Of a stretch of DNA of 60,348 bases, positions 1-60,348 are shown one piece after another. The notes below the pieces were generated by a model, which was not told the origin of the DNA, made no database searches, and saw nothing but the letters and a program-made list of their open reading frames with translations. Origin of the DNA: a virus. Both the position numbers and the translations under genes were made by a program. The stretch lies in UHGV virus genome UHGV-0030339; one strand, given 5' to 3'. How positions within the stretch are numbered: position 1 is the stretch's first letter; every line of letters begins with the position of its first letter.

Positions 1-751
1 GATAATCTTTTCTGGTATTTGTTATTTTCTCATGGCATAATGCTATCTTTTTCTTTGTTTTGTAGTAATTTTGACTTTTTTTCTCTTTATGGGCTAACTG
101 CCTTTGCAGTTTTTCCAGTTTCTTCTCGTTTTTTCTGATAATTTTGGGATTTTCGTATTTCTTTCCACCAGAAGTAATACATAAATCCTTAATACCTAAA
201 TCGATTCCTGTATTTTGGGTTGTATGTGGCAATTCCACATGTTCTGTTTCCACTAAAACCGATACATAATATTTCCCACTCGGCACTTGTGATATCGTTG
301 CTGATTTTATCTGCCCGCTAAACTTTCTATGCAGTTTTACTTTTACGCCTTTTAATTTAGGCAATTTTACTTTGTTTCCATCGAAATCTACTGTTATGTT
401 GCCATTCGTAAAATTTGTTGTATATGATTTATGATTATCATGTTTACTCTTAAACTTTGGATAACCTGCATGCTCCCTAAAAAATTTCTGATATGAACTG
501 TCCATGTTATAAATCGCATTTGTTAAAGCAAACTTATCCACTTCTTTCAGCCATTCATACTCTTTCTTTAATTCCCTGTTGCAGTAATTATTACAATCTG
601 TTTTGCTGACAGATTTTTTCTCTTTTTCGTATCTTTCTTTCCGATATGCAAGTGTCTGATTATACACAAAACGGCAACAGCCAAATGTTTTTTCTATCTG
701 TACTTTCTGCTCATTATTGGGATATATTCTGTATTTATATGCTTTTAACAT
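1..751 (-). CDS. tnpB: TnpB (OrfB) RNA-guided endonuclease, N-terminal ~250 aa; same ORF continues at 60348..59996
   Basis: RC translation MLKAYKYRIYPNNEQKVQIEKTFGCCRFVYNQTLAY...GIDLGIKDL (RuvC-I) ...LCHEKITNTRKDY; the partial codon at pos 1 plus the last 2 nt of the window make CTT(L), followed by [12 protein letters not shown]... Confidence 0.85.
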   Translation of the reverse strand, partial: MLKAYKYRIYPNNEQKVQIEKTFGCCRFVYNQTLAYRKERYEKEKKSVSKTDCNNYCNRELKKEYEWLKEVDKFALTNAIYNMDSSYQKFFREHAGYPKFKSKHDNHKSYTTNFTNGNITVDFDGNKVKLPKLKGVKVKLHRKFSGQIKSATISQVPSGKYYVSVLVETEHVELPHTTQNTGIDLGIKDLCITSGGKKYENPKIIRKNEKKLEKLQRQLAHKEKKSQNYYKTKKKIALCHEKITNTRKDY

Positions 752-769
752 TCGCTGCCACCTTCTTTC

Positions 770-1189
770 TTAGCCTTGATTTTCGATATACTTTTTTAGC
801 ATTTCTTCTGATACATTTCCTACACTACAAGCAAAATAACCATCTGTCCAAAATGTATGTTCTTTCCAGAAATGCTTCCGCAAATAATTCGGATAGCGTT
901 TCCATATATGGTAAGTCGTATAACTTTTCATTAGGTTTACAATTTTACTCACCGACATTGTAGGTTCAGTTTCTATCATGTAGTGAATATGGTCTTTGTC
1001 AGTTTCCATGTATTTGATAATAACTTTGTGCTTTTGACATATCTCATATGAAAACTGCTTTATATCATCTGATACCTGTTGCGAAACCAGTAATTTCTTC
1101 CTATATTTGCAGACGAAAATAATGTGGTATTGTAATAAATATTTGTGTCTGTTTTTAGATTTCCATGTTCCCATATCATTAGCATACAA
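770..1189 (-). CDS. tnpA: IS200/IS605 TnpA (Y1 HUH transposase)
   Basis: 139 aa; HIH motif (DHIHYMIETEP), C-terminal ...TDGYFACSVGNVSEEMLKKYIENQ typical of IS200 TnpA. Confidence 0.9.
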   Translation of the reverse strand: MYANDMGTWKSKNRHKYLLQYHIIFVCKYRKKLLVSQQVSDDIKQFSYEICQKHKVIIKYMETDKDHIHYMIETEPTMSVSKIVNLMKSYTTYHIWKRYPNYLRKHFWKEHTFWTDGYFACSVGNVSEEMLKKYIENQG

Positions 1190-1204
1190 TAATTCTCAGC
1201 TTTT

Positions 1205-1249
1205 GGCTACCTTAACCCACCGTCTAAAGCCAGTGGGATTGCGGTAGCC
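1205..1249 (-). repeat. IS left-end subterminal imperfect palindrome (TnpA recognition hairpin)
   Basis: ggctacc..cccac-tggctttagac-ggtggg..ggtagcc; near-identical hairpin cccattggctttagacaatggg at 59893-59914. Confidence 0.7.
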
Positions 1250-1856
1250 TTATTTCAACAAGGTCAAGTCCTTTCTCTGGAGCATGACCAACTTCCTTTT
1301 TATAGATTTCATTTGCCTTGTCCAAGTCAAATTCCTCGCCAACTTTCAGCATAATGTGGTATTCCAACACAAACTGTGGCACATTGGCATTGTTGCAAAT
1401 CCTATACATCCTCCGCTGATTTCTCGCATACCAGCTAGGATTTTTTGGTATAGGTGTATTGCTTGGCTGGCAAACTGAAGATTGCTCCAAAGTTGCTGGT
1501 TTTGCTTTTGCACGGAAGTATGTGTTCACCAACTCCCTCTGGACTTTCCAAGATAAATCATCTGTAAAGGTTTTGACTATCATCAAATAGCCGCTTTCTG
1601 TAAGCAAATAAGTTATAAGGCTTGGATTTCCCTTAATTATTTCATTAGGGGAATATCGTTCCCCTAATTCTTTTCTTGTCATTTCAAAGTAATCCTCACC
1701 CAAAATAAAATGCTTTTTATGCTTTTGAAAAGATTTCTTTGCGGTATCTGTTTGCTTCCCATGTACTCTGTCAATGTCTTTTAGTGTCACAACTCTCTGA
1801 CCGTTGTACTCTCTCACTGGCATTTCAGTATTTTCAATAGTAATGACTTCTTTCAT
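1224..1856 (-). CDS. ORF6N-domain phage antirepressor-like protein; last ~11 codons lie inside the IS left end
   Basis: N-terminal ...EYNGQRVVTLKDIDRVHGKQTDTAKKSFQKHKKHF resembles ORF6N; paralog of 58937..59563. Confidence 0.55.
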   Translation of the reverse strand: MKEVITIENTEMPVREYNGQRVVTLKDIDRVHGKQTDTAKKSFQKHKKHFILGEDYFEMTRKELGERYSPNEIIKGNPSLITYLLTESGYLMIVKTFTDDLSWKVQRELVNTYFRAKAKPATLEQSSVCQPSNTPIPKNPSWYARNQRRMYRICNNANVPQFVLEYHIMLKVGEEFDLDKANEIYKKEVGHAPEKGLDLVEIRLPQSHWL

Positions 1857-2232: not shown

Positions 2233-2418
2233 CTATTTTTTTAAGTCCGAATAAAGTTTCTGAACGCCTCTGCGAATACTTTCTGCCCTTGTCTCGTTAT
2301 AATGCATTGCAACTACATCAAGTTGTTTAAGCTGCTCATCATCAAACCTAACTCCTAATTGCGTTTGCTTTGGCTTTTCGCTTTTCGGTCTTCCTGTTCG
2401 TGGACTCATGTTCTTCAC
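2233..2418 (-). CDS. small ribbon-helix-helix-like DNA-binding protein
   Basis: 61 aa, RPKSEKPKQTQLGVRFDDEQLKQLD pattern typical of RHH/CopG-like proteins. Confidence 0.45.
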   Translation of the reverse strand: MKNMSPRTGRPKSEKPKQTQLGVRFDDEQLKQLDVVAMHYNETRAESIRRGVQKLYSDLKK

Positions 2419-2530
2419 CTCACTTTTTGATTACCACAAATTTATATTACTTTATGATTACCAAAAAGTCAACCATAAAAAACAAAAAAATCAGGGAAGT
2501 TTTTCGCTCCCCTGATAATTCGTACCAATA

Positions 2531-2836
2531 TTAAACTTTCCATGTGTGACCGCAGTTCTGGCATGTGGCTCTGGTTTCAAGGATAGATTTTTCTTTTCCC
2601 TGAGTTTTTCCAACACCTACTTTATCACCTCTAAGAGTTCCAAAAAGTAATTTCCACAACCAGCCCATACACAAAAATTGTATTACGTCAATACACCAGC
2701 CAAAGCAAAGCCAATATAAACAGCCCTTTTTTCTAGGCTCTCTCATAACGATTTTCCCGGTAGATGTGCTACCGGTCTGTACATTCTGAACAAAAACATT
2801 TTCGCTTCCACATTTAGGACACTTCATAAAATCCAC
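2531..2836 (-). CDS. zinc-ribbon membrane protein
   Basis: CPKCGSE...CQNCGH flanking a hydrophobic W/L-rich core. Confidence 0.45.
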   Translation of the reverse strand: MDFMKCPKCGSENVFVQNVQTGSTSTGKIVMREPRKKGCLYWLCFGWCIDVIQFLCMGWLWKLLFGTLRGDKVGVGKTQGKEKSILETRATCQNCGHTWKV

Positions 2837-2903
2837 CCCTTGTATAATATTTGTGGATATTGTACCACATAAAAGGGCAAAAGAAAAGAGGCTCGGTGGC
2901 CCC

Positions 2904-3569
2904 TTATGCTGTCAGATATGCAATATCTGCAAATCTCTCCAATCTGTCTTTGCAGTCCTTGTAAATATCCTTATATGGCATATTCATTGACATGTCAATT
3001 CTGATTGTCTGTAAAATGATGCTTTCAACTAACGTCAGGTTATTCAGGTCGGTAACCGATGCAGCGTCCCGGTTTCCCCCAACAATTGACTTAGCCAGCT
3101 TCGTATATGTGAGATACAGTTTATCAGAATGCGTACTGCCCTGTTCTTTCGCATAATCAACAAGCATCTTGATCACATCAGTTTCTTTCAGCCGGTTTTC
3201 TTTATTGGCAAGTCTGGTGTCGTTCCACTGCTTTGACTGTTTTTCGCGAATAAATTCTCTCATTCTGATAAACTCGCTTGCCAGTCTTGCTTTGAAATTT
3301 ACTACCGCGCCATCTACGCCATCGTTTCTCAAAAGCGTCATCAGAAACATTGCCTGCCCCTCATTTAAAAAGTATATTTTTTCTTTTTGACCGTTTTTTG
3401 AAGGCTCCGTTTTAAACGTAACCTTTCCGAGCATAGGTGTTTTTTCAAACACTTCCTCATACTTCTGTATAATTTCTCTTACATTTTTGTGCTGATTTCC
3501 AGTTCCTTCCGCAATCATCTTGCTGTTTGTAAATACATCATTCCCTTTGAGTTCAACCAATTCATACAT
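2904..3569 (-). CDS. Rha-family phage regulatory protein (antirepressor-like)
   Basis: N-terminal NDVFTNSKMIAEGTGNQHKNVREII matches the Rha family signature. Confidence 0.6.
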   Translation of the reverse strand: MYELVELKGNDVFTNSKMIAEGTGNQHKNVREIIQKYEEVFEKTPMLGKVTFKTEPSKNGQKEKIYFLNEGQAMFLMTLLRNDGVDGAVVNFKARLASEFIRMREFIREKQSKQWNDTRLANKENRLKETDVIKMLVDYAKEQGSTHSDKLYLTYTKLAKSIVGGNRDAASVTDLNNLTLVESIILQTIRIDMSMNMPYKDIYKDCKDRLERFADIAYLTA

Positions 3570-3659: not shown

Positions 3660-6600
3660 TTAAGTAAAGCTAAATCCATTTCTGCTAATCCGGCTGTTAA
3701 TAGCACTGACAAGCTCGCGCCCGTCAAGACTAATTGACGTATCCTTGTCAGCAGTTTCCCTGGTATTCTCTGCAATCTGGGACAGATATGGAGCTAAGAC
3801 ATCTGCAACAGCTTCTCTTACTCCGGCAGTAATGCCAGCTACAATCTGCTCATTATTTGCTACTGCTGTCTTGCCATTAGAGAATTGGCCAACCATTTCA
3901 TTATGATTTGCAAAAAACAGACCATCTTCTGGAAACCCACCTACAGAGTATTTCGGAATGTCAACATGAGCTATTGCTCTAAAAGATACATGTGAAATGG
4001 TATCTTCTTGCATTTCCTTTGCCGCCTCATTGTAATCGCTGATCAGGTCATTCATGGACTCTGCAATTCTGGACAATCCAGTATTGAACAAGTCAATCAT
4101 GCCATTGACTAAATCTCCAACTTCTTTCACAATGCCTTTAAATCCAGAATAGATACCATCTTTCATATTAGTGCCAAATGGTTCCCATTTTTCCTTTGTG
4201 AACCACGTAGACACGTTATTGGTAAACCAGTTGTTGATATTGATATTCCACTGAGTTTCAAACTCTGTCCATTTGTCCAGAAGCGCAGTTTTGAAATGGT
4301 CGCCCTGTTCCTTCCACTTTTCAACGGTAAACCATGTTTTTACGTTAGTATTCCACCACGTATTAGTCTTTGTTTTCCACTGAGATACAAATTCGTCCCA
4401 CTTGGCAATAAGACCTGTTTTCATTCCGTCCGTTGTAGTTTTCCATTTTTCAGTGGTAAACCATGGAGAAACATTTGCACTAAAAAATGTTGGCATTGCG
4501 GTTCCAGACCACCATACAGCAGCTTGGTTCCATGCATTCATTAACGATGTCTTAAGATTGCCAAAAATAGGATCCAGTGCCGTAGTAGTAAAACTTGACG
4601 CAAGACCGGATACAGCGGTTGTACCAATCGTGCTAAACTGCGACTCGCTAAGGGTATCAGAAATGGTATTGTACACGTCAGTAGCAAATGTGCTGATCGT
4701 ATCAATGCCGTTGCTACTCTCAAATGGCTTTATCAATCCGTCCAGCATACCTTGACCTATCTCTTTCCACTTGGACTCAGAGAATATATCATAGACATCG
4801 TTTATGGTGTCAGAAATACCATTGTGCAGTCCTTCAATAAGGTAAACACCATTCTCATCCATGACAGTAGATGGAGAATGGATACCAAGAACATCTTTAA
4901 ATTTGTCAATAACTCCTTTGGCAACATTTCCAACACTCTCTTTGATATTATTCCAACCGTCTTTGATGCCATTAATCAAGCCTTCCATGAGGTATCCACC
5001 CATTTCCGCCATGACTTTCGATGGAGAGTGGATAATAAATACTGACTGAAATGCATTCATAAATGGAGTAAAAATGTTATCAGCAACCCACTGTCCTATT
5101 GACTTTAATGCATCTACAATACCCGTAAATAAGCCTGCAACAATGTCTCCGCCAGCCGCCTGGATATAAGTGGTAAAATATGTTTTAGTCGCGTTAAATC
5201 CATTCACAAGCATATTCCATACTTGTTGTGCAAGAGCTACCACCAGCGAAGAAAGCGCACCTAAATATGTGCCTAAGTATGTGAAATACGTGGTAATTAA
5301 TCCAGTATAGTTAAATGCAGTAACAATATTGTATAAGGCATTCCAAAGATTAGTTCCAATTTGTGCCCAGTCTACAGAAGCAAGACCGGATATTACGAAG
5401 TCAAATATACCTGTGGTAATTGCATAGCCGGCATCTACCAATCTCTGTGCCAGGCCACCCCAGTCAATACCTACCAGAAAATCCATAACTCCTTCGCCAA
5501 AAGCTCCCCAATCGGTTTCGTCAACAAAGGTAATAAGTGCATCAAGTAGGCCATTAACCACAGAGTTGAGACTTGTAGCCGCACCTGCCCAACTAAATGT
5601 TGAAGCAAATGTATTAAAACTAAGCGCCAAGCTGTTTCCCAAATTCGTCCAACTAAATGTTGTCGCTGCATTTTCCAATACTGTAAACGCTGCGTTTAAC
5701 CCATTAGCGAACATTTGTCCCAGTTCATCCCATTGAACCGTATCGACAATTCCATTAAGTCCGTCACCAATGAATTTTCCAATAGAGTCCCAGTGCGTAA
5801 CATCCAGAAGAGTATTGGCAAAATCTACAGCCGTGTTAACTGCCTGTCCAATTGTTGTACCAATTGATGTAGCCAAACCTTCTGTTTCAACAAAGCCATT
5901 GATGAAGGTTCCAATACTGGATGCAATCTTTCTGGCAGACTCCTGAATGCCGTCCCACGGGATAGAGTCAAGGCCGTTCTTAAGCCACTTTCCAACAGCT
6001 GATCCAAGTTCTGTAAAATCTCCGGCGTTCCACATGGACTTGATTTTATCAGCCCATTCTTTGTACTTGCTGTCAATATCTTGTGTCTCAAACATATCAG
6101 CAGCACTAGCGCCGCCGCTACCGCCGGATCCGCTATTTTTGTTTTGGTCTACAACATTCAGTTCGTCAATTCCAAGCGTATGGGTCTTAAGATCATCAGC
6201 AGCTTTTCCAGCCTTTCCAAGGCTTTTGGCATAGTCTTGTGTCTGTTTTTTAGCTTTAATCCATGTGCCATGTCCTGTAAGTGCTGAAAACAACTGATTA
6301 ACCGCATTTGCCGCATTGATACACAGTTGGATTATCGTGTTTAAAGCCGGGGCGAGTGCATTAAGTATTGGGGCTCCTGCCGCCGCCACAGAGTTTTTCA
6401 GCTGGTTTGTAGAATTCATTAACAATGACATGCTAGCATTGGTTTCACTGCTATATTTAACCAAGTTTTGCATGCCGTCAGTAAAGGCTTTTCTAAGTTT
6501 ATTGACCAATGCAAATAAAGTTCTTACACCAATTGCATATCTCAGTATCGTTCCCAGGTTTTTCAACAATGAATTATGAGTGCCTTTACTTGCACCTGTA

Positions 6601-8078
6601 AGTCCGGAAAATGCTTTTGAAAGTTTACTTTTAATCGCAGATGCCAATGAGACTATTGTTTTTTTTGCTACCTTTAAAGGTGCAGTCAATCCGGTTAATA
6701 TAGCTTTTTTGGCGGCACCTGCTGCTGCTCTAGCAGCCGCTCCAATAAGTGACAATTTGCCAGCAATTCCTGAAGCTGCTCTTTTTGCCAAATTTGGCAA
6801 ATCTCTAAAAGTCTGAGCTATCATGCCTTTCATATTTTGCAATTGACCTGATAAGCTGCTAGTATTCGGCCCGGCAATCGCCGCAGGTTGAGCGGGTACT
6901 TTTGCAGCTTCCTCAGCTGCTTGACGTGCGGACCCACGCATAGCATCTAATTGCGCTTTTAAGCTTTCAATCTGGTTTTCATACTTAACAACACTTGCAA
7001 TAGCATGTTCGTATGATTTACCATCTGTATCCCCTGAAAGTTCGATTTCTTGCTGTTTGAGCTTTGCATTTTCTAAACTGTTGGTCAGAGATTTTATCTT
7101 TGACTCAATTTCTTTTTCGCTGCCAGACATGGTAAAACTTTTTCCAAGTTCCGCATATTTTTCTCTGATTTCCTGAGCTTTTTCAGAAATGCTTTTGCTC
7201 ATATTTGACATTTGGTCATTGATTTCTTGGCTTGTCTCAGTAGCACCTTGAACCATTTCAGGGTTATTTAAGGCCTGTCCGGCCTGCGCACCATACTCAC
7301 TTACAGCCTGTGCCCAATCCCTAATCTGTGCTGCGGCTTCTCCAAATGTTGCAGCCATAGCATCTGCGTTATACTGCATATCAGAAACAGCCACTTTTAC
7401 AGCGTCTTGAACTTCGGTAATGTTTTCCTTGACGTTGTCTCCAAAAAGTTCTGATACATCATGTACATCAAACATATCGTCAAGTTTTGGAAATTCACCA
7501 TCAATCGTACCTGTAAACTCATTGGGGTTTGATTTTGTAGCCGCTACCTCTTGCGCCGCAGCAGCGGCTTCAATTTCAGCTTGTCTAAGAGCCTCAAGCT
7601 GTGATTTCAGACTTTCAATCTGGTTCTCATACTTGACAACGCTTGCTACAGCTTTCTCGTATGACTGACCGCCAGTATTTCCGGAAGCTTCTAATTCCTG
7701 CTGTTTCAAGCGTGCATTTGCTAAGGCGTTAGTTAAAGAGTCTACTTTTTTTTGAATTTGCTTTTCAGAACCGGACATGGTAAATCCCTTACCAACTTCC
7801 GCATACTGCTTTCTAATTTCTTCTAATGATTTAGAAACATTCTTTGCAAGCGCCGACGTTTGATCCTTAATTTGCTTGTTAATGGAATCAAGGCTTTTAC
7901 CACTATCTTGGGAAGCCTTAGAAAAACTCTTTCTAAAGTCAGATAGGGTAGAATTTTTTTTTAACGCAGAAATACCTTCTGCCACAAGCCCTAACTTTTT
8001 TATAAGCTCATCAAGGCTCTTACTTGCTTCGTCAGCTGTAGTTTTAACTGATATTTCCAGAGAATCTACTTCTGCCAT
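3660..8078 (-). CDS. tail tape measure protein
   Basis: 1472 aa; duplicated coiled-coil blocks; IHSPS/HSPS motifs; W-rich tandem repeats (WFT.EKW); long Ala/Gly-rich segments. Confidence 0.9.
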   Translation of the reverse strand: MAEVDSLEISVKTTADEASKSLDELIKKLGLVAEGISALKKNSTLSDFRKSFSKASQDSGKSLDSINKQIKDQTSALAKNVSKSLEEIRKQYAEVGKGFTMSGSEKQIQKKVDSLTNALANARLKQQELEASGNTGGQSYEKAVASVVKYENQIESLKSQLEALRQAEIEAAAAAQEVAATKSNPNEFTGTIDGEFPKLDDMFDVHDVSELFGDNVKENITEVQDAVKVAVSDMQYNADAMAATFGEAAAQIRDWAQAVSEYGAQAGQALNNPEMVQGATETSQEINDQMSNMSKSISEKAQEIREKYAELGKSFTMSGSEKEIESKIKSLTNSLENAKLKQQEIELSGDTDGKSYEHAIASVVKYENQIESLKAQLDAMRGSARQAAEEAAKVPAQPAAIAGPNTSSLSGQLQNMKGMIAQTFRDLPNLAKRAASGIAGKLSLIGAAARAAAGAAKKAILTGLTAPLKVAKKTIVSLASAIKSKLSKAFSGLTGASKGTHNSLLKNLGTILRYAIGVRTLFALVNKLRKAFTDGMQNLVKYSSETNASMSLLMNSTNQLKNSVAAAGAPILNALAPALNTIIQLCINAANAVNQLFSALTGHGTWIKAKKQTQDYAKSLGKAGKAADDLKTHTLGIDELNVVDQNKNSGSGGSGGASAADMFETQDIDSKYKEWADKIKSMWNAGDFTELGSAVGKWLKNGLDSIPWDGIQESARKIASSIGTFINGFVETEGLATSIGTTIGQAVNTAVDFANTLLDVTHWDSIGKFIGDGLNGIVDTVQWDELGQMFANGLNAAFTVLENAATTFSWTNLGNSLALSFNTFASTFSWAGAATSLNSVVNGLLDALITFVDETDWGAFGEGVMDFLVGIDWGGLAQRLVDAGYAITTGIFDFVISGLASVDWAQIGTNLWNALYNIVTAFNYTGLITTYFTYLGTYLGALSSLVVALAQQVWNMLVNGFNATKTYFTTYIQAAGGDIVAGLFTGIVDALKSIGQWVADNIFTPFMNAFQSVFIIHSPSKVMAEMGGYLMEGLINGIKDGWNNIKESVGNVAKGVIDKFKDVLGIHSPSTVMDENGVYLIEGLHNGISDTINDVYDIFSESKWKEIGQGMLDGLIKPFESSNGIDTISTFATDVYNTISDTLSESQFSTIGTTAVSGLASSFTTTALDPIFGNLKTSLMNAWNQAAVWWSGTAMPTFFSANVSPWFTTEKWKTTTDGMKTGLIAKWDEFVSQWKTKTNTWWNTNVKTWFTVEKWKEQGDHFKTALLDKWTEFETQWNININNWFTNNVSTWFTKEKWEPFGTNMKDGIYSGFKGIVKEVGDLVNGMIDLFNTGLSRIAESMNDLISDYNEAAKEMQEDTISHVSFRAIAHVDIPKYSVGGFPEDGLFFANHNEMVGQFSNGKTAVANNEQIVAGITAGVREAVADVLAPYLSQIAENTRETADKDTSISLDGRELVSAINSRISRNGFSFT

Positions 8079-21068: not shown

Positions 21069-21141
21069 TCGGAACACCTGGACTTGAACCAAGGCGCATG
21101 GCTTATAAGGCCACCGCTCTAACCAACTGAGCTATGTTCCG
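21069..21141 (-). tRNA. tRNA, anticodon TAT (Ile-like)
   Basis: cloverleaf folded by hand: acceptor CGGAACA/TGTTCCG, D-arm GCTC..GAGC, anticodon loop CTTATAA, T-loop TTCAAGT. Confidence 0.7.
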
Positions 21142-21443: not shown

Positions 21444-21516
21444 CTAGGCTACCGGGATTTGAACCCGGGCATTCAGGAGTCAAAGTCCTGTGTCTTTACC
21501 GCTTGACTATAGCCCA
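21444..21516 (-). tRNA. tRNA-Gln (anticodon TTG) with U1-A72 and G73
   Basis: acceptor TGGGCTA/TAGCCTA, anticodon loop CTTTGAC, T-arm CCGGG-TTCAAAT-CCCGG. Confidence 0.7.
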
Positions 21517-25291: not shown

Positions 25292-25663
25292 ATGAGAAAA
25301 TACACCGTAGAAAACAGAAGCAAGTACACCGAGTTAATCACATTTGACGAGCTTAACAGCAAGGGCGAGAAAATCCAGCTTGAAATTATCAAATGCACAA
25401 ATCCGGGTGGAAAGCATTCCCTCCCGTACCTCTGGAAGAAAAACGGATTCGCTGACAAGATTCTTGATACCTGGTTAAGCATTGACACATACGCCACCGA
25501 GGACGGCGGAAAAGGTACTTGCTGGGGGCGCTACAATCCACAGACCAAATTATCAGAAGACGGAAGACGCCAAGTTATCAACTTTGAGTGGATGCTTGAA
25601 GCCACCGAAGAAAACCGCAAAAAACTTATAGAAGAAGTTGAGCGGTTAGCGTTTACAAAATAA
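25292..25663 (+). CDS. hypothetical protein (moron-like, higher GC)
   Basis: strong RBS aaaggaga; 123 aa. Confidence 0.55.
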   Translation: MRKYTVENRSKYTELITFDELNSKGEKIQLEIIKCTNPGGKHSLPYLWKKNGFADKILDTWLSIDTYATEDGGKGTCWGRYNPQTKLSEDGRRQVINFEWMLEATEENRKKLIEEVERLAFTK

Positions 25664-26057
25664 GCCGAAACGCCCGCCAGGGCGTCCACCGCGGGACGGT
25701 CTCCCGGTGCTGATGAGGCAGACCAGAAAGGGAAAAACATGAGTAGCGAAGATAGACACGTTTTAGAAAGCTTGGTATTTGCTTATTTTGTCGGTGAAAT
25801 GGAAATGGAGCCGATCACGGCACGCCGCAAAGTTGACAACATGACAGATGAGCAACTAGAAAGCTTTACAAAATAACCGCCGCAGGGGATGCAAGCCCGG
25901 CCCGATACCGGGCGGCGGTGTTTATCTCCCGGCTCCCAGGTTGAAAGGGAAGAAAGAAAAGCTATGTTAGATTTTATCATGGCGATATGCATATTTTTAG
26001 GTGGTTATGCGTGCCGCGTAGCTGCTGAGGATACAGAAGAATAAGGAGGTTCACACA

Positions 26058-30653: not shown

Positions 30654-31469
30654 ATGCTCAAATACAAAATTGAGGATTATGTTGGTCAAAAATATGGTCA
30701 CCTAAAAGTTTTAGGAAAATCTGTCGATTCCAATATTCCTAACTGTTTCTTATTCCTGTGCGACTGCGGAAGAGAAATTTCTCTCGCTCCCGATCTAGTT
30801 ATTAAAGGTCACCAGAAATCTTGCGGAAAATGTTTGTTTTCTAACGAATCTCCATCAAGAATAAATCCAGAAGATTATATTGGAAAAAGAAACAATCTTT
30901 TAACTGTTGTTTCCACGCACAAAGAATCAAAAGGAAGAACAAAGCTCATTTGCCTATGTGATTGTGGTAAAACTACAGAAGTTTTGTCATATCAGTTCAA
31001 AAAAGGATCTATAAAAAGTTGCGGTTGCTTGCTCAAAAACAGTCCAAACTACTTGGACGGAAGAAGCACCAACGAACTTTATGGACTTTGGAAAAACATG
31101 CTTGGAAGATGTGAAAATCCAAATCACCCTAAATTTTACCGGTATGGTGCTAGAGGAATCAAAGTGTGCAATGAATGGCATAATTTTTGGAGTTTTGTTT
31201 CGTGGTCTATTTCTGTCGGAGGAAGACCAAACGGTTTTTCCTTAGACCGAATAAACAATGATAAAAATTACTGTCCAGAAAATTGCAGATGGGCTGATTC
31301 CAAAATTCAATCTACAAACAAGTCAACAAACAGAATCATTGAATATAACGGAGTTTCAAAGACTCTTCATGAATGGGCCACAGAAATCGGAATAAGCGAT
31401 CAATCTTTATCCAAACGCCTGCAAAAAAATTGGCCATCAGAAAAAGTTTTTGCTCCAAAGTCCAAATAG
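30654..31469 (+). CDS. HNH endonuclease (HNH_3/AP2-type) with duplicated Cys-rich N-terminal repeats
   Basis: FSLDRINNDKNYCPENCRWADSKIQSTNK motif; only large + strand gene in this block. Confidence 0.6.
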   Translation: MLKYKIEDYVGQKYGHLKVLGKSVDSNIPNCFLFLCDCGREISLAPDLVIKGHQKSCGKCLFSNESPSRINPEDYIGKRNNLLTVVSTHKESKGRTKLICLCDCGKTTEVLSYQFKKGSIKSCGCLLKNSPNYLDGRSTNELYGLWKNMLGRCENPNHPKFYRYGARGIKVCNEWHNFWSFVSWSISVGGRPNGFSLDRINNDKNYCPENCRWADSKIQSTNKSTNRIIEYNGVSKTLHEWATEIGISDQSLSKRLQKNWPSEKVFAPKSK

Positions 31470-32509: not shown

Positions 32510-33859
32510 TTAAAAAGTAACGAAACGAATTTCTATATCGTTTCCGCTAATAACAATTCTTTCAATACATTCTTTCAAAACTCGGTTTTTCTCCTTAACA
32601 GAAAGCGTGTCCCAAACATCCGAAACATGCTTAATCTCTTGGATTTTTTGGGTATTATCTGGTTCCTTTCTATCATTTTCAGTTAAAAGTTGTTTGTTCA
32701 GTTTTTCAATTTTCTTTTCCGTCTCCTTGATGACGTCCATCAAGTTTTTACTTGGATTATCTGCATAAAGTACATATAAACGTTTGACATGCTCATTTTC
32801 TTTTCTAATTGCTACTTTGAGCTTTGCAACCGGATCATCTTTCGGTCCACTATTCGCTTTAACATTGATAGCAAACTTTTTAAAGCAGTCTTCCACATCT
32901 GCTTCTATAATCTCTGCATATGCTTTAATGTTAGTGCAGTTTTTATCCCGAATCATGTAACTCTTGCCACTGTATTGCGAGTAGCAAATAATGCGTGGCT
33001 TTATTCCGTCCCATTTATGATATCTCATCCTAGCACCACATATTCCACAGTAACACAGTCCACTTAACAAATAACCATTTGACACATGAGCATTTGTTGA
33101 ACGCTTTTTTTGCATATCTTGAACCAAGTAAAAAGTTTCTTCGTCAATGATAGGTTCATGCTTGCCTTTATAGACATTGCCTTTGTATTCAATTAATCCA
33201 ATGTATGTTTTACGCTTAAGCGCATTTTTCACAACATTTTCACAGCTAAATCCAAGAATATTAGCAATTTTATCACATGAGTATCCTTTCAGGTAAAGTC
33301 TAAATGCATCACGAACCAGAGCTGCCTTATCAGTATTGACATGGAGTATTCCGTCATTTCTATCGTAATAATACCCAACAGGAATATTTCCACCACCAGG
33401 CCAAAGACCGTTTTTTACACGTTCAACCATTCCTGAAGACATCCTCATTCGGATGACTTCCCTCTCATACTGGTTCATTGCTGCGTTCATAGTCAGCATC
33501 ATTCTATCCATTGGATTTTCTGTCCGCAACTCTTCTGTCATGGACACAACCTTTACTCCATATCCAGGAAGTGTTTTGTAGAACAAAGTCAGTGTATCAA
33601 TAACATCACGACTCATACGATCCAATTTATAGATGTACACCGTATCTATGATTCCACTTTTTGCATGTTCAAGCAACTCCTGTATCTCCGGTCTATCAAG
33701 TTTACTTCCACTATACCCCCCGTCTATGTACCATTTGTCAATAGTAATACCATGTTTTTCACAGTAATCCATGATTTTTTGTTTCTGCATATCCAAGCCG
33801 TATTTTTCAGTCTGTGTCTCTGTTGATACTCTCAAATATGCCACTTGCAATTTGCTCAT
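32510..33859 (-). CDS. large serine recombinase (phage integrase)
   Basis: N-terminal YLRVSTETQ...DRMSRD resolvase catalytic domain plus zinc-ribbon/coiled-coil C-terminus; 449 aa. Confidence 0.85.
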   Translation of the reverse strand: MSKLQVAYLRVSTETQTEKYGLDMQKQKIMDYCEKHGITIDKWYIDGGYSGSKLDRPEIQELLEHAKSGIIDTVYIYKLDRMSRDVIDTLTLFYKTLPGYGVKVVSMTEELRTENPMDRMMLTMNAAMNQYEREVIRMRMSSGMVERVKNGLWPGGGNIPVGYYYDRNDGILHVNTDKAALVRDAFRLYLKGYSCDKIANILGFSCENVVKNALKRKTYIGLIEYKGNVYKGKHEPIIDEETFYLVQDMQKKRSTNAHVSNGYLLSGLCYCGICGARMRYHKWDGIKPRIICYSQYSGKSYMIRDKNCTNIKAYAEIIEADVEDCFKKFAINVKANSGPKDDPVAKLKVAIRKENEHVKRLYVLYADNPSKNLMDVIKETEKKIEKLNKQLLTENDRKEPDNTQKIQEIKHVSDVWDTLSVKEKNRVLKECIERIVISGNDIEIRFVTF

Positions 33860-43911: not shown

Positions 43912-44934
43912 CTACCTTTCCAATAATTCTTTTACATACAAATCCATTGAATGGCACAGCTTAATGCAATTTCCATGTAATGCATGGTTTTTCCAAGCAT
44001 TATATTTTTCGTAAAACTTCTCTTCTGGCATTTTTTCAACCTTAACCAACTCTATCCATTTACGGATGTTTTTCTTGGCTCTACGTTTGTTGCTGCCATT
44101 CAATTTCCTTATATACTTGCCGTCAGATGTTATATAATGGTGAAAACCTGTAAAAGCTATCCCACATTTAAACGGAACTATTTGTGTTTTCCCATTTAGC
44201 TCCAATTTAAGGCTTGACAGAATTTGTATTATCTGATCTAAGCACATCTTCAGATACCCTTTGTCTGGATGAATTAAATAAAAATCATCCATATATCTCC
44301 CATACCTGGAAATTTTGAGATTTTCCGTAATGATATGATCCATTTCATCTAACATCAGAAGCGCATATACCTGCGCTACCTGGTTTCCAAGGGGAAGTCC
44401 CAGACCTTCTGTACTGTCAATAAATAAATGGTTCAGCCATTTAATGTACTCATCTGGGAAATGATAATCTACAATCTGTTTGAGGATTTCGTGATCTATC
44501 TTGTAGAAAAACTTCCTGATATCACACTTAAGAATCCAACCAGATAGTCCGTATTGGCTATAAAACTCTAACATCTGCTCTTTCAGGCAATCCATTCCAT
44601 AATGAGTACCTTTACCCTCTTGCCCGGCATAATTCGTTCTGATAAAACGTTCCTTTAATACCGGATGCAAGATTTCATCGCAAAGACAATGCTGCACCAC
44701 TTTGTCTTTAAAAGAACACGATTTAATCACCCGTTCTTTAGGCTCATATATTTTAAATTCATTGTACGGGTTCATACTATATGTCTGATTTTCCAGTTGC
44801 TCTTTTAATAGGTGCAAACCTTCCAAATTCATAGTCTGGAATTTCGCACAACTTCCATTAAAACCTTTACCAGACTTAGCTTTCCTATACGCTTTATACA
44901 GGTTTTCATAACTACATATAACATCTTTATACAT
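43912..44934 (-). CDS. diversity-generating retroelement reverse transcriptase
   Basis: 340 aa; DGR-RT N-terminus (NLYKAYRKAKSGK...DKVVQHCL), LGNQVAQ (DGR variant of the QGxxxSP box), YMDD. Confidence 0.85.
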   Translation of the reverse strand: MYKDVICSYENLYKAYRKAKSGKGFNGSCAKFQTMNLEGLHLLKEQLENQTYSMNPYNEFKIYEPKERVIKSCSFKDKVVQHCLCDEILHPVLKERFIRTNYAGQEGKGTHYGMDCLKEQMLEFYSQYGLSGWILKCDIRKFFYKIDHEILKQIVDYHFPDEYIKWLNHLFIDSTEGLGLPLGNQVAQVYALLMLDEMDHIITENLKISRYGRYMDDFYLIHPDKGYLKMCLDQIIQILSSLKLELNGKTQIVPFKCGIAFTGFHHYITSDGKYIRKLNGSNKRRAKKNIRKWIELVKVEKMPEEKFYEKYNAWKNHALHGNCIKLCHSMDLYVKELLER

Positions 44935-45032
44935 TGTAAAAATTCCTTTGTATTTACCCTTCCTGGGAGGGCCATGAGCTTTTTTGTATCTTTTACTGAT
45001 TTCGGCTTAATGCCTACTCTTACCGTCTGTGT

Positions 45033-45106
45033 GATACAGAATGGACGAACACCGTTGTTGTTATTGTAATTGTTGTTGTTGATATTGCCGGAAGGCGAAA
45101 CAACGG
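45033..45106 (-). repeat. DGR template repeat (TR)
   Basis: 74 bp homologous to the VR copies; coding sense is AAC/AAT-rich (GNINNNNYNNNNGVRPF); every TR-VR mismatch sits at a TR adenine. Confidence 0.85.
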
Positions 45107-45131
45107 TTTGTACAGTTCACAGCCCAATTTC

Positions 45132-45503
45132 TTATCTTTCTCTGTCTTTCGTTCTCCAAGCAATCGCCATATGCTTAATATCGGTCACTATTTTTGACCA
45201 ATATTCCATGCTTTTCACATTGATAATATTTAACTTCATGGACAATTCAATGTAAAACAGAAGCTCATCGCAATGTGTGATTGCCTTGGTTTGCAATTCT
45301 GACCGGTCCCTGCGATATGATTTCAAATCAGTTCTGTTTGCTTCGTACAGATACTCATAAATTTCAAGAGCCTTATTCTGCATTTTATCTACAAGAGAAA
45401 ATCTATATTTCTTGGGATACCGGTTGCAATTTGAAGTCACTCGCAAGGTATGCTCCGCCAGTTCCTTTGCTTTAAGAATCACCTTTAAGTCGTTTTCTGC
45501 CAT
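45132..45503 (-). CDS. avd: DGR accessory variability determinant (Avd)
   Basis: 123-aa basic helical protein between the VR-bearing gene and TR-RT. Confidence 0.7.
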   Translation of the reverse strand: MAENDLKVILKAKELAEHTLRVTSNCNRYPKKYRFSLVDKMQNKALEIYEYLYEANRTDLKSYRRDRSELQTKAITHCDELLFYIELSMKLNIINVKSMEYWSKIVTDIKHMAIAWRTKDRER

Positions 45504-45507
45504 TTAC

Positions 45508-46122
45508 TTATTCCTCTGATTCAAAGATTGAAGAGGAAAAGATACAAAACGGACGAACACCGTTGCTGCCATAGTAACTGCAGTAGTTGACATCGCCGGA
45601 AGGCGAAACAACGGCTACTGTACTGGAATAATCATTGCAGGGTGTACTCCATGGAGTAATTAACCACCACCATTTATTTGCATTAGGAATGTACTCCCTA
45701 TATTTTCTGTACTCATCTACTGTCAGAAGAGACATTTTATCAGTGCATGATCCGTATTCTGTCTGACCATCCAGAGAAATGAGATTTCTTTCAAACTCTA
45801 ATACATTTCCTTTACCTATTTCTTCTTCCAGCTTTTCTAAAAACTCTTTGTTCAGATAGCTTCTCAGGTCACTTGTTTTCCAGTTGTTATCATCAGAGTC
45901 AAATTCTCTATTTCCAATAGATTCTGCCAGGCACATATATCCCGCATCTGTAATATCCAGAATTTTCCATGTTGTTCCAGCAAGTTGAAATTCGTCTCCG
46001 ATTGAAAGTCCAGCCGGTAGATTCTTCATGTTCTTAGAATCGTTACCTTTCAATGCATTTATTTCTTTCTTCAACTCATCGATCTGATCCTGAAGCACTT
46101 TCATTGTTAATGCCATGATCAT
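45508..46122 (-). CDS. DGR target protein 1 (DUF1566/C-type-lectin-like variable domain at C-terminus)
   Basis: C-terminal ...WWWLITPWS...VAVVSPSGDVNYCSYYGSNGVRPF; VR at its 3' end. Confidence 0.8.
   Translation of the reverse strand: MIMALTMKVLQDQIDELKKEINALKGNDSKNMKNLPAGLSIGDEFQLAGTTWKILDITDAGYMCLAESIGNREFDSDDNNWKTSDLRSYLNKEFLEKLEEEIGKGNVLEFERNLISLDGQTEYGSCTDKMSLLTVDEYRKYREYIPNANKWWWLITPWSTPCNDYSSTVAVVSPSGDVNYCSYYGSNGVRPFCIFSSSIFESEE
45541..45614 (-). repeat. DGR variable repeat VR1
   Basis: flanks ggacgaacaccgtt / gccggaaggcgaaacaacgg identical to TR; internal differences only at TR adenines. Confidence 0.85.
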
Positions 46123-46718
46123 TCTCCCTTCGATACAAAGATATGAGATTTCAAGATACAGAACGGACGAACACCGTGGAAGTTAATGCAACCGCTGTTG
46201 CTGACATTGCCGGAAGGCGAAACAACGGCTACTGAGTACTCCCAACCGCGTTCTTTGGTGCTCCATGGGGTGCATGTCCACCCCCAGTCATTCAGATTCT
46301 TATTGACAAGCAGGTCATTAAATTCCCTTGCCTCATCAAAGGTAATTGGCCTTACTTTGCATACACAGTCTTCATATTCATGCTGCATATCTACCGATGC
46401 CAAGTTTACAGTATGCTCAATCAGATTTTCTGCGCCTACAGCATTTTCAATGATCGGCTGAATATCCGATTCAATCAGTTTTTTAAGTTTGGACTTATTG
46501 TAATCTGTTGATCTTTTGTCAAATTCAACATTCTCGGCCATAAAGCCCTTTGAAATAACTGCCGCATAATTAGGTGCCTGCATAAGCACGATAAAATCAT
46601 GCTCACCAACTTTAAATACTTCCCCTGGCTTCAGTTCTGACAGCCTCGCTTCGTTCTTTTTCTCTGCTTCTTCTAATCGCTTTACTAACTCTCTTGCCAT
46701 GTCTAAGGCTTTGCTCAT
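46119..46718 (-). CDS. DGR target protein 2 (paralog of target 1)
   Basis: C-terminal ...CTPWS...VAVVSPSGNVSNSGCINFHGVRPF; ATGA overlap with target 1. Confidence 0.8.
   Translation of the reverse strand: MSKALDMARELVKRLEEAEKKNEARLSELKPGEVFKVGEHDFIVLMQAPNYAAVISKGFMAENVEFDKRSTDYNKSKLKKLIESDIQPIIENAVGAENLIEHTVNLASVDMQHEYEDCVCKVRPITFDEAREFNDLLVNKNLNDWGWTCTPWSTKERGWEYSVAVVSPSGNVSNSGCINFHGVRPFCILKSHIFVSKGE
46155..46228 (-). repeat. DGR variable repeat VR2
   Basis: same conserved flanks; adenine-specific substitutions relative to TR. Confidence 0.85.
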
Positions 46719-50200: not shown

Positions 50201-50965
50201 TTACCTTTTCTCCGCTTCTTCCTCTACATTGACTTCCCGCACACTTCCGACAAACTTATTGACAAAGTAAATCTGACCTTTGCCTGTGACTTTTGTTGTC
50301 CGGGTTATTCGTACTGATCCGTCTGGGTTCTGTACATTGCTTTCTTTGACCTCAAACAACCCTTGTTCTACATACCTTTGCATTGGCATGTTTTTTGAGC
50401 TTCCGCCCTTTACCAAGTACCCATTTTCTCGCAGCCACTCAAATAATCTTTTCTGCCCTATCTGGTATCCGTTTTGGCAAATCAGCTTTGCCAAGTCACC
50501 AACAAGAATTGATGTGTGACTTGCGCTTACCGCATCCGCAAAAATTGTCTTAGGTTTATCGGCTTCAATTTTCTGCTCCAGAAGTCGGTTATTATGCTTT
50601 AGATCTTCAATCTGCCGGTCTGCGATTTTCAAGGCTCTTGCCATAACCTGTTCAGGCGTGTTCCAGGCTTTTTCCAAATCAATGAGATATTCTCGTATCT
50701 GCTTGCCTTTTTCAGTTCTCGACATAAGCGATAAATGTTTGGCCATTAATACTGAAATTTGATAATCTTCAAGCTCTCTTGTTGCACCATTGTTTACAAC
50801 CGTACTCGATGTACACTTGTGATAATCTTCGTTCTCTACAAATAATTCCTTATTTGTATCAAACCACCTACTAAATCTTGAAACGATACCCAATGCACTA
50901 TGCAGTTCTCTAGCGGACACTGTTTGCGTGTCAAAATTTACGTTCAATAACTCATTCATTTCCAT
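50201..50965 (-). CDS. phage antirepressor (Rha-like N-terminus, KilA-C/ANT C-terminus)
   Basis: VSARELHSALGI.SRFSRWF and ...LAKLICQNGYQIGQKRLFEWLRENGYL. Confidence 0.65.
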   Translation of the reverse strand: MEMNELLNVNFDTQTVSARELHSALGIVSRFSRWFDTNKELFVENEDYHKCTSSTVVNNGATRELEDYQISVLMAKHLSLMSRTEKGKQIREYLIDLEKAWNTPEQVMARALKIADRQIEDLKHNNRLLEQKIEADKPKTIFADAVSASHTSILVGDLAKLICQNGYQIGQKRLFEWLRENGYLVKGGSSKNMPMQRYVEQGLFEVKESNVQNPDGSVRITRTTKVTGKGQIYFVNKFVGSVREVNVEEEAEKR

Positions 50966-58936: not shown

Positions 58937-59563
58937 TTAAAGCTCATAATCTGGATAAACAGCTTCCCAAACATCTTTATGATAAGCATTAATCGACCCA
59001 TAATTAGCGTCGAAGATCTTCTTGACTTCGTACCCCATACGTTCCCCAGCCTCTTTTAGCCTTCTCCATTTGAATGTTTTCCAAGAAACATTATTCAGTG
59101 CTGCTACTCGCTTGATAGAGTACCAATCTTTGCTTGTATCAAGCTGTGCCTGTAGCTCTGCTTCCCGATCCAGGCTTTCCAAAAGCTGTGCGATAGCGTC
59201 CCGGTAAGACATCGGCATATTCATCTTATCGTCTTTCTTCTGGAAGTAATTGTCAACTAGGCGGTCATACACTTCCCATGCCTGATCCGTATTCAGTGAC
59301 TTAGCGTGAAGAAAAGCACCTTTTTCTGTCCAGAGGTAAATTGTTTTTGCATTTTTCAGACCGTCGTGATTTTCCAGACGGTTCACAAATAAGGTCTTTT
59401 CTTCGTTTTCAAGTTTTATAAAATGTTTTCCTTCTACAAAACGATCAATATTGTGGTTAAAATTGTACGAGATTGTTTTTCTGTCCGTTCCATACGCTTC
59501 CGCAATCTGCTGTGTGGTCAATACTCTCTGGCATCTGTACTCTGTTACTGTTAATCCTTCCAT
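58937..59563 (-). CDS. ORF6N-domain antirepressor-like protein (paralog of 1224..1856)
   Basis: RVLTTQQIAEAYGTDRKTISYNFNHNIDRFVEGKHF. Confidence 0.55.
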   Translation of the reverse strand: MEGLTVTEYRCQRVLTTQQIAEAYGTDRKTISYNFNHNIDRFVEGKHFIKLENEEKTLFVNRLENHDGLKNAKTIYLWTEKGAFLHAKSLNTDQAWEVYDRLVDNYFQKKDDKMNMPMSYRDAIAQLLESLDREAELQAQLDTSKDWYSIKRVAALNNVSWKTFKWRRLKEAGERMGYEVKKIFDANYGSINAYHKDVWEAVYPDYEL

Positions 59564-59874
59564 CCAATTATCTCCTTCTGTATTTTAAGCAACAAAAAAC
59601 GCCCACCAGACATAGATTTTCTACATCTAGTGAGCGTGATTCTTAAACTGTTTTTGCCGTCCTTGCTCAGCTCGTCCTATCCTTTAAGCCTTGTTTTTCC
59701 CGCAACGGCTATTGGGCAAAGCTGATGGATTCGGCTAAATTTTACCCTTTTATTATACCTGTTTTGGGCTGGAATATCAAGGTTTCTTGAGCATTTACCT
59801 CAGTCTTCTACTAAAATAAAATCTGTCAAGTTCTTCCAAGCGGTCAAGATAATCGTCTGCGGTTTTCCCAAGGT

Positions 59875-60080
59875 CTGTGAAGTGGTGAACTACCCATTGT
59901 CTAAAGCCAATGGGCTTCCTGCTTCCCTGACCTCGTAACCTACTATCTCCACAGGCGTTAATTCGGGCAGTTCCTGCCCTATGTTGTTATTCCTTTTATG
60001 CTATTTGTCTTAATCCTTCTTCCAGTATATTCTTCGCCGCATTGATATCCCTGTCATGATTCGTTCCACAGACGGGACAT
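59875..60080 (-). ncRNA. candidate TnpB omega-RNA (reRNA) scaffold covering the tnpB 3' end and RE
   Basis: established architecture of IS200/IS605 TnpB systems; no sequence-specific verification possible here. Confidence 0.35.
59893..59914 (-). repeat. IS right-end subterminal hairpin
   Basis: cccattggctttagacaatggg (minus strand). Confidence 0.7.
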
Positions 60081-60348
60081 ATCCATTCCCTTACTGTCAG
60101 ATTTTTCGTCTCTGTATTTTGGTATCCACAGACTGAACACAACTGACTACTGGCATAGAAGGTATCTATTTTGACATATTCCCTTCCATTCCATTTTGCC
60201 TTGTATTCCAACTGCCTTGTCAGCTCATACCATGATACATCACTTATTGACTTTGCCAGATGATGATTTTTTACCATATTCTTTATCTGCAAATTCTCCG
60301 AGACTATCACTTGGTTTTCGCTGATAATCTCATGGGATATCTTGTGAA
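59996..60348 (-). CDS. tnpB: TnpB C-terminal part (RuvC-II E, zinc finger, RuvC-III)
   Basis: ...[44 protein letters not shown]. Confidence 0.85.

Follow-up and report, generated by a model that had tools for sequence, protein, structure and literature searches.

Evidence for the recent insertion of a complete IS200/IS605 element into an ORF6N antirepressor gene of a temperate tailed phage

Introduction

The virus genome UHGV-0030339, analyzed here over its whole stretch of 60,348 nucleotides (nt; hereafter the window), carries pieces of what looks like a transposon at both of its ends. The listing of open reading frames (ORFs) gives a Y1-transposase-like ORF (770..1189) and, at 59996..60310, the C-terminal third of a TnpB-like protein, both on the minus strand. 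This raises the question whether the pieces belong to a single insertion sequence (IS), where that element begins and ends, and what its arrival did to the phage. An initial annotation made from the letters alone had proposed a complete IS200/IS605 element, with tnpA, tnpB and hairpins at the left end (LE) and right end (RE), lying over the circle junction of the genome. Our analysis bears this out, as both ORFs are intact, both hairpins are present and the join is seamless. We conclude with high confidence that the element is a complete, autonomous IS of the IS200/IS605 family, similar to IS608 and ISDra2, that has recently moved into a temperate tailed phage at a TTGAA target inside an ORF6N gene. 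The genome of this temperate tailed phage codes for a terminase, a portal, a major head protein, an endolysin and a serine integrase.

Results and Discussion

One element spans the joined ends of the window

The IS is 1,717 bp long and runs on the minus strand from 1253 to 1 and on from 60348 to 59885. It carries tnpA followed by tnpB, co-oriented with each other and with the surrounding phage genes. Its parts are:

1..1253, minus strand: left (5') part of the IS, with the LE, tnpA and the first 252 1/3 codons of tnpB; the first IS base is 1253
59885..60348, minus strand: right (3') part of the IS, with the remainder of tnpB and the structured RE, a predicted omega-RNA scaffold; the last base is 59885, ending ...GGGTAGTTCAC
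770..1174, minus strand: tnpA, encoding a Y1 HUH transposase of 134 amino acids (aa) from an ATG (alternative TTG start at 1189), with H62-I-H64 and Y129
1..757, minus strand: N-terminal part of tnpB, 252 codons and the first base of codon 253
59996..60348, minus strand: C-terminal part of tnpB, with E268, the zinc finger C321/C324/C341/C344, D351 and the stop codon

Across the joined window ends the tnpB ORF is unbroken (757..1, then 60348..59996, minus strand) and encodes 367 aa, with codon 253 straddling the junction. When the IS was joined over the window ends and compared with other copies, the alignment was gapless at 99.94% identity. The single tnpB frame and the gapless alignment across the join show that the window is a circularly permuted genome with a seamless junction.

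Both proteins have the hallmarks of the family. TnpA matched the Pfam family Y1_Tnp (1e-37) and aligned over its full length with TnpA of IS608 (E=5e-18); DKDHIH, which holds the HUH motif, and KKYIENQ, which holds the catalytic tyrosine, are conserved, as is characteristic of the Y1 HUH transposases of IS200/IS605 elements. TnpB matched HTH_OrfB_IS605, OrfB_IS605 and Cas12f1-like_TNB, all well over the Pfam cut-offs, and aligned end to end with TnpB of ISDra2 (8bf8/8exa/8h1j, E=2.2e-87). Its D184/E268/D351 correspond to D191/E278/D361 of ISDra2 and both CxxC pairs are present, giving the split D-E-D RuvC domain, the zinc finger and the N-terminal helix-turn-helix (HTH)/WED-REC region of a TnpB. 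Inactivating mutations in the HUH or RuvC motifs, which the initial annotation had named as a reason to doubt the call, were not found: HUH/Tyr and D-E-D are intact. Among solved structures the best match to TnpB was an 'AI-designed RNA-guided nuclease' (9yyg, E=7e-98), above ISDra2 TnpB.

Scarless insertion after TTGAA

Relatives of TnpB were confirmed in 504 cases in bacterial genomes, of which the best 80 were kept, and in 90 IMG/VR viral contigs. The ends of the IS were defined by aligning it, together with its flanks, to these loci, which gave ~80 other copies, and by comparison with three empty sites. With a slash marking the insertion boundary, the left end reads TTGAA/ATAAGGCTACC, common to ~45 copies with unrelated left flanks, and the right end reads ...GGGTAGTTCAC/, common to ~90 copies with unrelated right flanks. 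With its target, the IS thus reads TTGAA/ATAAGG...GTTCAC/, its ends being at 1253 and 59885, and ends proposed earlier at 1262 and 59875 lie 9-10 nt too far out. Directly before the first IS base stands the target:

1254..1258, minus strand: TTGAA, TnpA target pentanucleotide and predicted TnpB transposon-adjacent motif (TAM), directly 5' of the LE

In an alignment-anchored count TTGAA preceded the IS at 27 of 28 distinct insertion sites, and the remaining site read TTTAA.

Sibling phages were found by a search with the interrupted ORF6N protein followed by a pattern scan; the latter yielded L182, which is the same contig as L003. The exact empty-site form in sibling phages is TTGAA/CACTTCACAGACC. 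The site reads ...CTTGTTGAA/CACTTCACAGACCTTGG... in L182/L003 (junction TTGAA/CACTTC), ...CTTGTTGAG/CACTTCACAGACC... in L002, where both flanks are contiguous (junction TTGAG/CACTTC), and TTGAA/CACTTCATAGACC in L004 (junction TTGAA/CACTTC). In all three sibling contigs the two flanks are collinear with zero duplicated bases, and over 5.3 kb of the right flank L003 and L004 share 97.5% identity with the window. The insertion is therefore precise, 3' of TTGAA and without target duplication. The comparison with IS-free relatives, on which the initial annotation had let its claim depend, thus gave precise scarless sites and TTGAA as the target pentanucleotide, and a specific pentanucleotide, no duplication and a scarless empty site are together what an IS200/IS605 element leaves. 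The INPHARED phage records held nothing resembling the phage flank, and the IS occurred there only as a partial 90% copy in an unannotated faecal scaffold.

The ends themselves have subterminal hairpins rather than terminal inverted repeats, in line with the family:

1216..1237, minus strand: LE hairpin CCCACTGGCTTTAGACGGTGGG, 16 nt inside the left end
1205..1249, minus strand: LE subterminal structure, the inner hairpin 1216..1237 within an outer stem of GGCTACC and GGTAGCC; predicted fold -27.1 kcal/mol
59893..59914, minus strand: RE hairpin CCCATTGGCTTTAGACAATGGG, 7 nt inside the right end

The two 22-nt hairpins are similar to each other and are the sole two matches within the window; shuffles gave 0. 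When the bases 5' of the hairpins were read for pairing of a TnpA DNA guide with the cleavage site, following the IS608 rule, no convincing register appeared.

The insertion rewrote the 3' end of an ORF6N gene

The initial annotation had placed the IS between two ORF6N paralogs. The 229-aa homolog and an orphaned gene tail locate it instead inside the 3' end of the first of the two genes:

1224..1856, minus strand: disrupted ORF6N antirepressor gene, with 201 native codons (1254..1856) followed by 9 IS-encoded codons and a stop (1224..1253)
59795..59884, minus strand: orphaned ORF6N tail HFTDLGKTADDYLDRLEELDRFYFSRRLR and stop, the last 29 codons (59884..59798) just past the RE
58937..59563, minus strand: second ORF6N antirepressor gene, intact (Pfam ORF6N 1.7e-21), downstream of the IS and outside it

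The product of ORF 1224..1856 has the ORF6N domain (PF10543, 5.5e-16), and its homologs align to residues 1-201 only. The intact homolog in L003 has 229 aa and ends ...GLDLVE/HFTDLGKTADDYLDRLEELDRFYFGRRLR, whereas the window version ends ...GLDLVE/IRLPQSHWL, with the final 9 codons and the stop taken from the LE. The insertion thus exchanged 29 native C-terminal codons for 9 IS-encoded ones. That the C-terminus was rewritten by the insertion had been proposed before and holds; the part inside the IS is nine codons and a stop rather than the ~11 codons then suggested. For annotation, the IS accounts both for the truncated ORF6N gene and for the 29-codon fragment left on its own, and it reveals the window as a seamless circle.

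The two ORF6N proteins have only the N-terminal domain in common (28% identity, E=2e-11), and ORF6N proteins here also matched PHROG anti-repressor families. The genes lie in an island that follows the tape-measure gene (3660..8078), after which come a Rha-like regulator, a zinc-ribbon ORF, a small repressor-like ORF and the two antirepressors; beyond these stand phrog_1194 and phrog_13879 proteins of unknown function. The initial annotation had set this island between the genes for the tape-measure protein (TMP) and the distal tail protein (Dit). The position between the tape-measure gene and tail genes further downstream stands; the 'Dit' is unconfirmed, as the gene in question matches phrog_1194.

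Just past the orphaned tail and ahead of the second ORF6N gene there is a promoter-like site (59752-59780, minus strand, TTGATA-17-TATAAT, 11/12 consensus). Given this site, the second gene may not need read-through across the IS. Regulators of the Rha/Ant/ORF6N type are unusually many in this phage, with three of them in the island that follows the tape-measure gene and a further Ant at 50201..50965; a serine integrase and an HNH endonuclease are also encoded (regions noted: 2233-3569, 50201-50965, 30654-31469 and 32510-33859).

A recent arrival of a common element

Compared with the copies in L101, L103, L105 and L021, the IS differs at a single synonymous position (1022) in 1,717 nt, and from those in L106 and L108 at 2 nt. 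The contigs with near-identical copies share nothing else with the window, and we rejected the idea that they are relatives of the window phage since the similarity is confined to the IS. Such near-identity at unrelated sites implies that the insertion is very recent; the element is evidently mobile and apparently active. TnpB is 100% identical in 8 IMG/VR contigs, among which 5 distinct insertion sites could be seen in full. At the two sites where flanking genes were checked these were phage structural or lysis genes: the copy in L105 lies between a portal fragment and scaffold/major-head genes, and that in L103 near an endolysin.

The exact TnpB is present on at least 999 public contigs, under the NCBI name 'IS200/IS605 family element RNA-guided endonuclease TnpB', and the exact 134-aa TnpA on at least 1,000, as 'IS200/IS605 family transposase'. 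Among the best 80 of the 504 bacterial relatives of TnpB, almost all are from Lachnospiraceae or other gut Clostridia. The premise that insertion sequences are rare in phages, from which the initial annotation drew its interest, fails for this element, given the 8 contigs with identical TnpB and the 90 related IMG/VR contigs. The kind of element is already known, has been annotated correctly elsewhere and is frequent among the phage contigs of this habitat. Its recognition as an IS is in itself of small importance, the proteins being publicly named and the mechanism being textbook for the family.

Solo-hairpin scars

A scan for the RE junction identified L183, a sibling with 98% identity over 979 nt, which has a scar at the site of the IS in the window: ...GAAAGGAGGGCTACCGCAATCCCATTGGCTTTAGACAATGGGTAGTTCAC/CACTTCACAG... 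(positions 968-1009, equivalent to 1253/59885 in the window). Here the 5' part of the LE is fused through one hairpin to the RE tail. The L183 locus ends 8 nt before the scar. The same solo-hairpin form, 46-47 nt long and reading TTGAA/ATAAGGCTACCGCAATCCCAYTGGCTTTAGACAATGGGTAGTTCAC/ (5' part of the LE, one hybrid hairpin, RE tail), was found at a further 11 distinct sites among the IMG/VR loci, always after TTGAA, so that L183 is the twelfth. The loci include L184-L197, L102 and L103, and several of the contigs also hold full copies.

The crossover between LE and RE falls at three points: before a C/T position, in the loop, or after the 3' arm. This variety suggests repeated independent deletions in situ between the similar hairpins rather than the spread of one mini-element. 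The L183 scar starts with AGGAGG and the LE of the window with ATAAGG, which makes it probable that this TTGAA was hit separately in the two siblings. L184 shares with L189/L197 the same solo-hairpin and an identical right flank (AGCATATTATAGAGTATATAAGAC...), while their left flanks are different; this suggests recombination, or boundaries of mosaic modules, at the element.

A conserved right-end structure and the predicted omega-RNA

The last 105 nt of the IS from 30 diverse copies were folded together with RNAalifold, which gave a consensus of three helices:

59885..59989, minus strand: structured RE, predicted omega-RNA scaffold core, with P1, P2 and P3
59965..59979, minus strand: P1, GGGCAG paired with CUGCCC
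59918..59955, minus strand: P2, CCUGU...GCAGG with inner GAU and GUC
59892..59915, minus strand: P3, the RE hairpin
59869..59884, minus strand: predicted 16-nt guide CACTTCACAGACCTTG, the first flank bases past the RE, placed by the ISDra2/Gst paradigm (PMC10055086)

The consensus has 23 pairs, with compensatory changes in 12 of them. Pairing was possible in 97.5% of cells, as compared to 27-50% when the partners were slid by 1-3 columns, and the covariation score was reached by none of 500 shuffles. Because G-U pairs are frequent, the structure is specific to the tnpB strand. Taken together, this conserved and covariation-supported RE fits an omega-RNA scaffold, which would be transcribed with the adjoining flank. 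Pairing of the 3' tail AGUUCAC with the P1 loop GAACU into a pseudoknot was considered by eye and rejected, since the loop varies in other lineages while the tail stays.

The guide had earlier been put at ~59860-59879, which is close to the predicted 59884..59869. Its match in the window is preceded by TTCAC instead of TTGAA, and there is no other match in the window. Because the RE junction reads TTCAC before the guide match, the IS-bearing allele lacks a TAM.

Known systems

Like the IS described here, ISDra2 of Deinococcus radiodurans has co-oriented tnpA and tnpB, a TnpB with a D-E-D triad and a zinc finger, and a structured right end that abuts the guide. The pentanucleotides of target and TAM begin with TTGA in both and differ in the fifth base, TTGAT being the TAM of ISDra2 and TTGAA the predicted one of the IS in the window. 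The TnpB has 367 aa as compared to 408 aa in ISDra2, the host clade here is gut Clostridia, and the predicted omega-RNA is unrelated in sequence to that of ISDra2 at the level Rfam can detect. With IS608 of Helicobacter pylori (TnpA PDB 2vhg, 2a6m), whose TnpA is the structural paradigm of peel-and-paste transposition of single-stranded DNA (ssDNA), the element shares subterminal hairpins, no inverted repeats and no target duplication. IS608 targets TTAC, in contrast to TTGAA here, and the LE of the present element has an extra outer stem.

T-even phages offer a further likeness. If TnpB cuts IS-free siblings, the nuclease locus and its flanking markers would be preferentially inherited in a manner analogous to that of the free-standing homing endonucleases SegF, SegB and Mob, which recognise DNA through protein contacts and come with no transposase.

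A worked-out mechanism of like logic is that of the ISGst elements in Geobacillus stearothermophilus (Meers et al.), in which the TAM is the TnpA target, the guide is the flank past the RE, TnpB cleavage of the scarless donor joint leads to transposon retention, and gene-less derivatives called palindrome-associated transposable elements (PATEs) coexist with full copies (PMC10055086). ISGst is chromosomal, whereas the present IS resides in a phage, and it can therefore be a competing phage that represents the IS-free allele. There is a difference in the derivatives too: those described here are 46-47-nt single-hairpin fusions of LE and RE, and they resemble single hairpins of the repetitive extragenic palindromic (REP) type more than two-ended PATEs.

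Possible cycle of the element and the sibling alleles

By analogy with the family paradigm only, we infer peel-and-paste transposition as ssDNA, expression of an omega-RNA and DNA cleavage by TnpB. TnpA, a Y1 HUH enzyme, would bind the hairpins of both ends in single-stranded form on the top strand and excise the element as an ssDNA circle, to be reinserted after TTGAA without duplication. The predicted products of excision are a donor joint GTTGAACACTTC and a circle junction GTTCAC-ATAAGG. TnpB would bind an omega-RNA that derives from the structured right end, with the last 16 nt (CACTTCACAGACCTTG) coming from the flank, and the complex would cut any allele with TTGAA followed by CACTTCACAGACCTTG. 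Such an allele could be the scarless excision product or the IS-free genome of a sibling phage in the same cell; after the cut, repair by recombination with a copy that bears the IS would put it back or spread it.

Among the phages related to the window the site occurs in four states, namely an intact and recent IS, a perfect empty target, variants of TAM or guide, and a solo-hairpin scar. L003/L182 has TTGAA and a 17-nt match to the flank, a perfect predicted target; L002 differs in the fifth TAM base (TTGAG, a synonymous GAG) and L004 has a mismatch at guide position 8. With three siblings, these TAM and guide differences may be due to chance. The set of alleles is a natural experiment that would allow a direct test of homing or exclusion by TnpB between co-infecting phages. 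'Transposon non-restorative homing' into co-infecting phages or plasmids is a category in a 2026 review (PMC13565253); in the literature we found no demonstration of phage-to-phage homing by TnpB, the idea being listed only as that category. As a tentative extension, which we think is probably not correct, the IS could be an RNA-guided homing element between phages, with a TnpB that is guided by the ORF6N flank to cut IS-free siblings and so converts or excludes them, while its 1.7-kb load is repeatedly shed by recombination between the LE and RE hairpins, the scars then representing immune genomes without scaffold or target.

Alternative explanations

An assembly artefact, in which the repetitive IS led to a wrongly closed circle or to a chimeric join and does not truly lie at this site of the phage, would explain why the window ends fall within the IS. 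The element is moreover a high-copy repeat of the community at which assemblies often break, as the end of the L183 locus 8 nt away and short IS-only contigs illustrate. Against this, the flanks join into a base-exact empty site in three independent sibling contigs, restoring the 229-aa ORF, the junctions are canonical (TTGAA/ on one side and after GTTCAC on the other), and in one sibling the same site is occupied by a derivative of the IS. This pattern is not what a random misjoin would give, and we regard an artefact as extremely improbable. Slightly less remote, and still very unlikely, is that the IS sits in the phage as a dead passenger that neither transposes nor makes a functional TnpB/omega-RNA. 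An intact sequence is no guarantee of nuclease activity, as the well-studied TnpB of IS608 was inactive in the assay of PMC10055086. However, neither ORF is truncated and no catalytic residue is missing, the RE structure is kept by compensatory changes, and the distance of 1 nt to copies at several sites in unrelated contigs implies very recent movement.

A further reading gives the element a benefit to its carrier: TnpB/omega-RNA would be mainly a weapon or gene drive that cuts IS-free siblings during co-infection or superinfection of a lysogen, thereby excluding them or converting them together with flanking markers. It is consistent with the perfect TAM and 17-nt flank match of L003/L182, with the fact that the other two empty siblings differ precisely in the TAM (L002) or in guide position 8 (L004), and with the listing of homing into co-infecting phages as a category (PMC13565253). 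We find it doubtful, since the guide is whatever flanks the RE, so that the match is automatic and no evidence of selection, the differences among three siblings may be chance, and the insertion damages a phage gene.

The reading of a complete, autonomous and recently inserted IS has points that weigh against it as well, chiefly where the omega-RNA and the host are concerned. P3 doubles as the DNA hairpin needed by TnpA, and its covariation alone is therefore no proof of a role as RNA; the RNA-specific evidence is that of P1 and P2. A single-sequence fold of the RE was modestly better than shuffles (z=-2.3). Rfam gave no match at the RE at the gathering threshold, and at a relaxed threshold the best was HPnc0580 at chance level (16.3 bits vs. 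gathering 37, E=7.5). The phage host, gut Clostridia/Lachnospiraceae, is inferred solely from the genomes that hold other copies of the IS.

Other features of the window

Away from the IS, the window encodes a reverse transcriptase (RT; 43912..44934, minus strand, phrog_1423), next to which lies a template-like copy of a 113-nt repeat family (45000-45112) with an AAC-rich tract. Two diverged copies are found at the 3' ends of the ORFs 45508..46122 and 46119..46718, with 65-77% identity within the family. Judged by eye, mismatches in the repeat core fall mostly on template adenines, and over the extended repeat the count is 27-28 of ~60 on A. The region 43912-46718 is likely to be a diversity-generating retroelement. 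A type II hammerhead ribozyme (RF02276) is present at 25663-25727 on the plus strand (61.2 bits vs. gathering 37, E=3e-10), opposite to most phage genes, and two tRNA genes, 21069-21141 and 21444-21516, both on the minus strand, lie near the terminase region.

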